Source of the DNA: Escherichia phage HMD-6
Sequence record: PQ505080.1
DNA: 64,000 nt
Reading direction: 5' to 3' (one strand)
The notes under the pieces are model-generated. The model made no database searches. It was given only the letters and a program-made list of their open reading frames with translations, and was not told where the DNA came from. Below, in pieces: positions 58,924 to 59,424 of the stretch; the stretch's first letter is position 1, and each line of letters starts with the position of its first letter. A program made the position numbers and the translations under genes.

Positions 58924-59424
58924 GTGAAAATTAAGATCTTTGCTATTATTTTGAGCGCACTTTTATCGCTGCCTGTTGTTGCAGCACCAAAACAAAAAGT
59001 ATATCACACCTGCAAGCCATCGGATACTAAGGAGAACATTCTGGCATGCAATATCTACAGGGAAGCCAGAGGAGATGGCACGATGGGTATGTTGGCATCT
59101 GGGTTTGCCACACTAAACAGGAAATCTCACCCTAAATACCCAGACACTATAAGAAAGATTGTCTACCAACCTAACCAGTTTTCGTGGACAAACCACGGCA
59201 AAACTTTTAAGGTGACAGAAAAAGATTCATGGGATCACGCTAAAAGTCTTGCAAAGATGCTTCTAAAGGTCTATAATAACAACCATGTTGCATACATGGC
59301 TATGGATATAACAGGTGGAGCAACACACTATCATACAACAAAAGTACGACCGGAATGGGCAAAAAAGATGCAGAGGACAGCTCAATTCGGGAGTCATATC
59401 TACTACAAGGAGCGCAATAAATGA
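58924..59424 (+). CDS. secreted SleB-like cell-wall hydrolase
   Basis: 166 aa; Sec-type signal peptide (MKIKIFAIILSALLSLPVVAA); ACNIYREARGDG ... ATLNRKSHPKYPDTIRKIVYQPNQFSW matches the SleB/Hydrolase_2 core; GTG start after TGGAG. Confidence 0.6.
   Translation: MKIKIFAIILSALLSLPVVAAPKQKVYHTCKPSDTKENILACNIYREARGDGTMGMLASGFATLNRKSHPKYPDTIRKIVYQPNQFSWTNHGKTFKVTEKDSWDHAKSLAKMLLKVYNNNHVAYMAMDITGGATHYHTTKVRPEWAKKMQRTAQFGSHIYYKERNK

Follow-up and report, generated by a model that had tools for sequence, protein, structure and literature searches.

A SleB-like cell wall hydrolase gene with a predicted export signal next to rIIA in an rV5-like phage: a known gene with a putative accessory role

What is a cell wall hydrolase with an apparent signal peptide doing in the early region of a large Escherichia phage, directly beside an rIIA homolog? 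The question is raised by a 64,000-nucleotide stretch of Escherichia phage HMD-6 (PQ505080.1), the whole of which we refer to as the window. A preliminary description of this DNA had proposed a secreted SleB-family hydrolase gene between a terminator and rIIA, had seen no lysis cassette, and had thought the linkage to lysis-inhibition-type genes notable. Our analysis bears out the description of the gene itself, whereas the two inferences drawn from its surroundings fail.

The open reading frame at 58924..59424 on the plus strand starts with GTG, ends with TGA and encodes 166 amino acids. Its presence as a gene is confirmed, and a spurious or chance call can be regarded as excluded, because a profile search of a representative library yielded 11,249 cluster representatives with homology (E≤0.001) and the frame is intact in ~115 related phage records, with protein identities of 95–99%. 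It is the ninth gene of an early rightward operon that begins at a divergent promoter region near 54.7 kb. Upstream lie a MoxR-type ATPase gene (57300..58484) and, as the direct neighbor, the gene for a conserved protein of unassigned function (58494..58874; phrog_12370). Downstream are homologs of rIIA (59421..61403, plus strand; phrog_612, E=1.6e-124, with a HATPase_c_3 match) and rIIB (61414..62619, plus strand; phrog_609, E=1.3e-61), together with a Dda/PIF1-type helicase gene. As previously described, the hydrolase gene sits just upstream of rIIA; its stop codon and the rIIA ATG overlap as ATGA, and rIIA has its own ribosome-binding site, AAGGAG. A sigma-70-like promoter match within the hydrolase gene (59249..59277, plus strand; TTGCAA-17-TATAAT, 10/12, a consensus match only) could serve as an independent feed for rIIA. 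None of the open reading frames of at least 20 amino acids on either strand of positions 58400–59600 encodes a transmembrane domain (TMD), so there is no neighboring holin or spanin candidate, in agreement with the preliminary description.

A 5.4-kb query around the gene matched 122 phage records, the best of which, at 98.6% identity, is the Vequintavirus Escherichia phage vB_EcoM_SYGMH1. Along its whole length the window follows SYGMH1 collinearly, first positions 107378..137423 and then 1..31802, at 96–98% identity and with two extra segments; it spans the portal gene (just past terL), the structural genes and the early/replication region. By sequence, the DNA is that of a Vequintavirus, another isolate of the rV5-like phage group, and the hydrolase gene is the ortholog of rV5 gene 2, a gene already known and annotated. 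Since 2013, rV5 gene 2 has been listed as a 166-aa 'cell wall hydrolase' with PF07486, in the company of rIIA (gene 1), a gene similar to T5.083 (gene 3) and MoxR (gene 4) (Table S3 of PMC3606486). The window gene matches it in length, domain and position, upstream of rIIA and downstream of the T5.083-like and MoxR genes, and we found no substantive difference between the two. Protein identity to the window product is 98–99% for rV5 gene 2 and its orthologs in SYGMH1, ECP26, FV3-like phages and other Vequintavirus members. The annotations of these orthologs vary among SleB, cell wall hydrolase, endolysin and hypothetical.

The leader peptide and the second-lysin status of the gene family are likewise already known from print. 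In Pectobacterium phage CB7 (Certrevirus), the SleB-like protein CB7_83 has homologs in all Vequintavirinae genera; the 2020 CB7 paper reported its signal peptide and stated, with data not shown, that its expression in E. coli is toxic (PMC7344957). CB7_83 and CR3_087 of Cronobacter phage CR3 resemble the window protein in combining a SleB-like domain with a signal peptide and in being extra to the phage's other murein hydrolase, and the identity of the window protein to Certrevirus homologs, for example the one from Pantoea phage F5M2A, is 45–49%. 'Two endolysins', one a lysozyme or peptidase and the other a SleB-like protein in the replication module, have been described for PVP-SE1 and BME3 (PMC12210895), and the same description was given for Septuagintavirus (PMC11370258) and Phapecoctavirus (PMC10793346). 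T5-like Salmonella phages also have two endolysins, and the authors state that the primary enzyme of the two is not known (PMC11180984). Our literature search turned up neither enzymology nor genetics for any SleB-like protein from a Gram-negative phage.

We examined the predicted catalytic domain for its relationship to characterized enzymes. Residues 51–161 align with positions 2–100 of the 100-position Pfam profile PF07486 (Hydrolase_2, 'Cell Wall Hydrolase', which represents the SleB catalytic domain); the score of 70.1 bits (E=2.7e-19) is well above the cutoff of 27. The protein also matches phrog_938, labeled 'endolysin' in PHROG (E=1.9e-27). An AlphaFold model built from a 125-sequence alignment has a pLDDT of 95.4 and replaced a single-sequence model with a pLDDT of 49.6. 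Foldseek gave significant PDB matches only to SleB catalytic domains, those from Bacillus anthracis and B. cereus (4FET and 4F55), with target-normalised TM scores of 0.76–0.79 and rmsd values of 2.6–2.7 Å. Glu47, the predicted catalytic glutamate (GAA, 59062..59064, plus strand), lies in the motif Y-R-E-A-R-G-D. Both Glu47 and Arg66 are invariant in all 125 aligned homologs, and conservation is 90% or higher at ~15 more positions. In a sequence search, 'NIYREARGD' aligned with SleB 'AVYGESRGE', which makes Glu47 the counterpart of the leading Glu in YGESRGE (4F55 and 4FET); this residue is reportedly the catalytic glutamate in the 2012 SleB structure papers. [quoted passage not shown]

Despite the shared catalytic fold and Y-x-E-x-R-G motif, the window protein is only 23% identical to Bacillus SleB (4FET, 4F55) and differs from it in architecture. 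SleB has an N-terminal peptidoglycan-binding domain that the window protein lacks, which places the latter outside SleB proper. No second Pfam match was found in the 146 residues that follow the signal peptide, and the single-domain architecture therefore resembles that of CwlJ (PMC12331253). A further difference from Bacillus SleB and CwlJ is that the window protein belongs to a phage of a non-sporulating Gram-negative host, and its substrate therefore cannot be the spore cortex. Bacillus SleB acts on a spore-cortex muropeptide (muramic delta-lactam) that is absent from E. coli, so that activity of the phage protein on ordinary murein is an assumption. Taken together, the sequence and model point most likely to a single-domain SleB/CwlJ-type murein hydrolase, a lytic transglycosylase that would use Glu47, and we infer that it would be active on E. 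coli murein.

Residues 1–20 (MKIKIFAIILSALLSLPVVA; 58924..58983, plus strand) form a predicted signal peptide, with predicted signal peptidase I cleavage after VVA. By inspection and sequence rules, the N-terminus, MKIKIFAIILSALLSLPVVA followed by APKQK, is built like a Sec signal peptide: the n-region is basic, the core of 16 residues is strongly hydrophobic, and a V-x-A site follows. The predicted mature product, residues 21–166, comprises the SleB-type catalytic domain and is encoded, with the stop codon, at 58984..59424 on the plus strand; it would have 146 aa, a mass of ~16.9 kDa and a pI of ~9.9. A hydrophobic leader precedes the catalytic motif in 139 of 149 cluster representatives and in all but five of 78 related IMG/VR loci (73/78), which were collected with 15 closer homologs as query. 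Leaders with AxA-type sites occur in the homologs of T5, Seunavirus SSE121, a phi92-like phage, Certrevirus and Erwinia phage KEY, and every enterobacterial-phage homolog inspected has a leader. The homolog of Pakpunavirus B55 has a longer N-terminal TMD, a membrane anchor, without an obvious cleavage site. All sequences with Cys42 (38/38) have a second Cys no more than 20 residues upstream, a constant pairing that fits a periplasmic disulfide. Sec export of the window protein is thus well supported by its sequence, and cleavage of the leader is predicted by the same kind of rules. Pfam match, model fold and N-terminal leader together sustain the earlier identification of a SleB-family hydrolase with a signal peptide.

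The conserved Sec-type leader and the location outside a lysis cassette set this protein apart from canonical cytoplasmic, holin-dependent endolysins. A virion-associated lysin is also a poor description of it, as the protein is small and free-standing, has a signal peptide and is encoded in an early/replication operon. Large SleB-domain structural proteins do occur in other phages (for example, BFVD matches of more than 1000 aa).

Is this, then, a phage without a conventional lysis system? Within the window, the SleB-like ORF is the only endolysin and there is no spanin; tblastn searches of the 64 kb with the lysozyme and spanins of the family gave only noise (E≥0.79). In SYGMH1, both lie outside the window. 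A λ-R-like lysozyme of 156 aa is encoded at 94730–95200 (phrog_90, E=5e-55), ~12 kb ahead of the first window position. An Rz/Rz1-type i-spanin/o-spanin pair lies at 105406–106088 (phrog_4297 and phrog_1267), directly upstream of terL and ~1.3 kb before the window start. For LysECP26, the lysozyme ortholog of ECP26, lysis by the purified enzyme was seen in all 29 Gram-negative strains examined once the outer membrane had been removed (PMC9728275). The rV5 lysin was named as gp89, with the 78-aa, 2-TMD gp129 put forward as holin (PMC3606486); SYGMH1 carries this 78-aa ORF at 72149–72385. LL12 has an endolysin, gp90, and spanins gp65/66, and the holin of the rV5-like family is described as not firmly identified (PMC6658697). 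The lysis genes of the rV5-like family are therefore ordinary, in a dispersed, T4-like arrangement, and the impression of a missing lysis cassette was an effect of where the window ends. The preliminary description had named a canonical holin–endolysin cassette elsewhere in the genome as something that would refute it, and the lysozyme, spanins and proposed holin of the family largely amount to that, although they are dispersed rather than in a cassette. Separately, we rejected a 'holin' annotation in SYGMH1 that corresponds to window positions 50941..51390 on the minus strand, as the product lacks any hydrophobic stretch and its PHROG match is phrog_6790, 'tail protein'.

The DNA immediately upstream of the gene bears on how much hydrolase is made. 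An intrinsic terminator (58888..58914, plus strand) consists of the hairpin CCCCGC-TTCG-GCGGGG (58888–58903; 6/6 GC pairs, loop of 4), an A, and the T-rich tract TTTTCTATTT (58905–58914), as expected from the earlier statement that the gene comes just after a terminator. The upstream genes end at this terminator, which abuts the hydrolase ribosome-binding site, a Shine-Dalgarno GGAG read from the sequence at 58915..58918 (plus strand), 5 nt before the GTG. As only GGAG separates the terminator from the GTG, there is no room between them for a promoter of the gene's own, and as the terminator abuts the ribosome-binding site, only read-through transcripts would carry the hydrolase gene. A terminator ending 17–27 nt before the start codon was found at 21 related IMG/VR loci, of which 19 are Vequintavirinae-like and range from 38 to 98% in protein identity. 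The stem sequences of these terminators differ (CCCCGC/GCGGGG, GCCCC/GGGGC, GGCTCAG/CTGGGCC), and Pakpunavirus B55 has a similar terminator layout. GTG or TTG starts were called throughout the Vequintavirus-like and Seunavirus-like loci with a simple ribosome-binding-site score, by which single calls may be wrong. This recurrence, across genera, of a terminator abutting the ribosome-binding site together with weak GTG/TTG starts is a modest new point of the sequence comparison. Combined with the toxicity reported for CB7, it is suggestive of selection to keep the hydrolase dose low.

We also compared gene order across relatives to evaluate the adjacency to rIIA. rIIA directly follows the SleB gene in Vequintavirus (the window and loci L012 and L013) and in one other lineage (L022). 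Elsewhere, the adjacency is not kept. Seunavirus-like loci have a membrane protein of 51–57 aa with a basic C-terminus between the SleB-like gene and rIIA, and in Certrevirus-like loci a 2-TMD protein of 61–65 aa follows the SleB-like gene. In the record of SSE121, the small membrane gene is masked by a one-base homopolymer (T7) frameshift. For Certrevirus, a 65-aa, 2-TMD class II holin candidate overlapping CB7_83 has been reported, and there are no rII genes (PMC7344957). Where these 61–65 aa candidates overlap the 3' end of the SleB gene, the window has no such gene, and rIIA overlaps the stop codon instead. No gene of rII size or with an rII annotation was present within 3.5–4 kb of the homolog in the loci of T5, KEY, VivaForever and B55. 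The small 2-TMD proteins of Certrevirus, Seunavirus and Iguana had no credible match in the window or in SYGMH1 in a search that is insensitive with such short queries. On this comparative gene order we reject a functional meaning of the rIIA adjacency, and with it the proposed link to lysis-inhibition genes; the adjacency is probably a local outcome of gene order after loss of the small membrane gene. Moreover, 'lysis inhibitor' is for rII a database label and not an established mechanism, according to PMC7344957, which cites Paddison et al. (1998).

T5 provides an informative comparison. Its 'sleb' protein (AAX12015.1), like the SleB proteins of T5-like phages, has a signal peptide and is encoded far from the holin–endolysin pair (PMC11180984, PMC3326045), in which the endolysin beside the holin is of the M15C type (PMC11180984). 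The T5 protein is ~40% identical to the window protein over the catalytic domain, and T5.083 is a homolog of the window gene just upstream of the hydrolase (rV5 gene 3). T5 sleb differs from the window gene in starting with ATG and in having an annotated early promoter; it has neither an abutting terminator nor rII genes in its vicinity. Even the true lysis genes of T5 sit in the 'early' region (PMC3326045), and genome position therefore says little about role.

A Sec-exported endolysin or a periplasmic factor, the two options of the preliminary description, is still the correct range within which to place this protein. We consider it probable that the gene, the fold of its product, the conserved catalytic residue and leader, the gene order and the terminator are best explained by a periplasmic accessory murein hydrolase that is expressed at a low level and is not the main lysis machinery. 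Read-through transcripts of the early operon would yield small amounts of precursor, with the terminator and the GTG start keeping output low. The precursor would be exported by Sec and its leader cleaved by signal peptidase I, and the mature, soluble, basic enzyme of ~17 kDa would then cut or remodel peptidoglycan from the periplasm, with no need for a holin. The hydrolase would thus be accessory to a lysis machinery that combines the cytoplasmic λ-R-like lysozyme with Rz/Rz1-type spanins and a separate, putative holin. Two observations argue for the accessory role: the phage has a proven cytoplasmic lysozyme and spanins, and genera that differ in their other lysin all retain the SleB-like gene. 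The second lysin is an M15 peptidase in CB7 and Septuagintavirus, the modular gp146 in PVP-SE1 and a lysozyme in Vequintavirus (PMC7344957, PMC11370258, PMC3352856, PMC12210895).

The same exported enzyme might nick or reshape host murein for a non-lytic purpose early in infection, such as superinfection exclusion, an effect on envelope mechanics or cell growth, or muropeptide release, and take little part in final lysis. We regard this as unlikely, although several features speak for it. The gene belongs to an early operon with host-type promoters, beside replication and rII genes (PMC3606486), and in Vequintavirinae, T5-like, phi92-like and Pakpunavirus phages the SleB-like protein is always extra to a lineage-specific endolysin (PMC10793346, PMC11180984). 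The expression features would also suit low, continuous dosing. However, sister genera pair the SleB-like protein with a small 2-TMD holin-like protein, which points to lysis (PMC7344957), and toxicity on expression fits a lytic enzyme.

It is improbable that the SleB-like protein is the principal, holin-independent endolysin, exported by Sec and unleashed when a holin collapses the proton-motive force, with the cytoplasmic lysozyme secondary. Lys44 of Oenococcus phage fOg44 is reportedly a Sec-exported endolysin released by such a collapse. The window protein may work similarly to a Lys44-type endolysin. Like Lys44 and the SAR (signal-anchor-release) enzymes P1 Lyz, phage 21 R and Mu gp22, it would reach the periplasm without a holin. 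As Mu gp22 shows, regulation of such enzymes can also come from partners that are not classical holins (PMC9239132), and a pinholin-like partner is conceivable in the small 2-TMD protein with a charged C-terminus of Certrevirus and Seunavirus (PMC7344957). The signal peptide, the PHROG label 'endolysin' and the lack of a firmly identified holin for the family (PMC6658697) also favor a principal role. Yet Lys44, P1 Lyz, phage 21 R and Mu gp22 are each the sole endolysin in a lysis cassette, whereas the window protein is a second lysin from an early operon, belongs to a different enzyme family, and has a leader that looks cleavable and is not of the SAR type. The family has a separate, conserved, canonical lysozyme that is demonstrably lytic (PMC9728275), and Vequintavirus is without the small membrane gene next to SleB. 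An early-operon position, attenuation by a terminator and a weak start codon would be odd for a main lysis effector.

SAR enzymes such as P1 Lyz and phage 21 R are tethered to the inner membrane by an N-terminal segment until depolarisation, and SAR domains consist of ~50–65% Gly/Ala/Ser/Thr. An uncleaved N-terminal segment holding the window protein inactive at the inner membrane in this way seems very improbable. The protein does have an N-terminal hydrophobic segment, the B55 homolog has its longer, apparently uncleaved TMD, and pinholin-like 2-TMD neighbors occur in sister genera. Against this, a SAR segment would be weakly hydrophobic, rich in Gly/Ala/Ser and uncleaved, whereas the core here (IFAIILSALLSLPVVA) is only 16 residues long, strongly hydrophobic (Kyte-Doolittle 2.6–2.8) and 31% Gly/Ala/Ser/Thr, and is followed by a canonical V-x-A|A-P site, with AxA-type sites conserved in homologs. 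Finally, the idea that the protein is vestigial or without catalytic activity (a murein-binding module, say, or the product of a gene in decay) has no specific support and is scarcely credible given the near-invariance of the catalytic Glu and ~15 other positions over the 125 homologs, the ORF intact in ~115 genomes and the high confidence of the model.

Returning to the accessory periplasmic hydrolase, we put forward one broader reading, tentatively and as something we think rather unlikely. Exported SleB-like hydrolases might constitute a conserved class of early phage periplasmic effectors distinct from endolysins, retained next to exchangeable true endolysins in virulent phage lineages that are unrelated (rV5-like, T5-like, phi92-like and Pakpunavirus). 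A conserved combination of an abutting terminator with a weak start codon would keep their dose low, and ancestrally they would have been paired with a small 2-TMD partner. Rather than lysis as such, their job would be superinfection exclusion or a conditioning of murein that, for example, readies the sacculus for abrupt lysis.

For annotation, the practical consequence is that this gene should not be taken as the lysis enzyme of the phage, nor as evidence that the phage is without a normal lysis system. These points are independent of this particular window. The interest that is left lies in the widespread retention of an exported second murein hydrolase; why several large virulent phage families keep one is a question already raised (PMC11180984, PMC7344957). 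If the proposed mechanism is true, a holin-independent, self-exporting murein hydrolase acting on Gram-negative walls would be of some applied interest.

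In the Seunavirus-like and Certrevirus-like phages of the sister genera, the SleB-like hydrolase gene is directly followed or overlapped by a gene for a small protein of 51-65 aa that has one or two TMDs. Among the related loci that carry SleB-like homologs, such proteins were found in L009 (3926-4123), L008 (3952-4107), and the IMG/VR loci L016-L021, L023-L026, L028, and L041. The arrangement is akin to that of a pinholin paired with an exported lysin. Vequintavirus itself has no small TMD gene next to the SleB-like gene. In Salmonella phage SSE121 (JX181824.1; locus L006), nothing is annotated between the SleB-like gene and rIIA, yet this interval contains a 57-aa membrane-protein ORF (L006, about 4453-4626), which is homologous to a 51-aa protein of Klebsiella phage Iguana. 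Since this ORF is continuous only if the T7 run recorded at about 4461-4467 were T6, the SSE121 record probably contains a homopolymer sequencing error.

Three further ORFs were considered in relation to lysis. SYGMH1_20 is labelled 'holin' in the record of SYGMH1, the closest genome, and its ortholog is a 149-aa protein encoded at window 50941-51390 (-). No hydrophobic segment was found in this protein, which matches phrog_6790 'tail protein' (E=9e-58); on these two grounds we rejected a holin identity, and the public label is probably a misannotation. The 68-aa ORF at SYGMH1 94460-94666 (-), outside the window, is annotated 'tail fibers protein'. This ORF directly follows the lysozyme gene, and its N-terminal segment is signal- or lipoprotein-like; it might be part of the lysis functions. 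Within the window, the tail-fibre assembly gene directly precedes an ORF at 38187-38501 (+), which is the position of the T4 holin gene t in the g38-t order. The 104-aa product (phrog_5345, unknown function) has a single TMD at its N-terminus and a coiled-coil region after it. It could be a candidate of the holin or antiholin type, or just an accessory protein of the tail fibre.

Two window segments are missing from SYGMH1. The 1.6-kb segment at 9907-11554 is inserted between tail genes, probably as a mobile or homing-endonuclease-type element; the 541-aa protein of ORF 9951-11576 (+) has repeated Cys-x2-Cys zinc-finger-like motifs and a weak match to the DUF4379 treble clef. The second, at 47839-48686 (about 0.85 kb), gave no megablast match in SYGMH1 and is a region that varies between isolates. 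It falls within the leftward small-gene cluster, where ORFs 47981-48310 and 48298-48801 have no Pfam match.

Nucleotide matches to window 57300-62700 included 16 'Campylobacter phage' records (about 93% identical; for example MG065662 and MG065672, unannotated). These probably represent Vequintavirus genomes that were mislabelled or are contaminants. Inside the hydrolase gene, a good sigma-70-like promoter match (TTGCAA-17-TATAAT, 59249-59277, +) lies about 145 nt 5' of rIIA; this predicted promoter could allow rIIA to be expressed independently of the terminator-attenuated hydrolase gene. The upstream neighbour of the hydrolase gene is rV5 gene 3 (58494-58874, +; phrog_12370), which is homologous to T5.083 (PMC3606486). 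Because a gene 3 homolog and a SleB-like gene both occur in rV5-like and T5-like phages, these data hint at an early-gene module common to the two groups.
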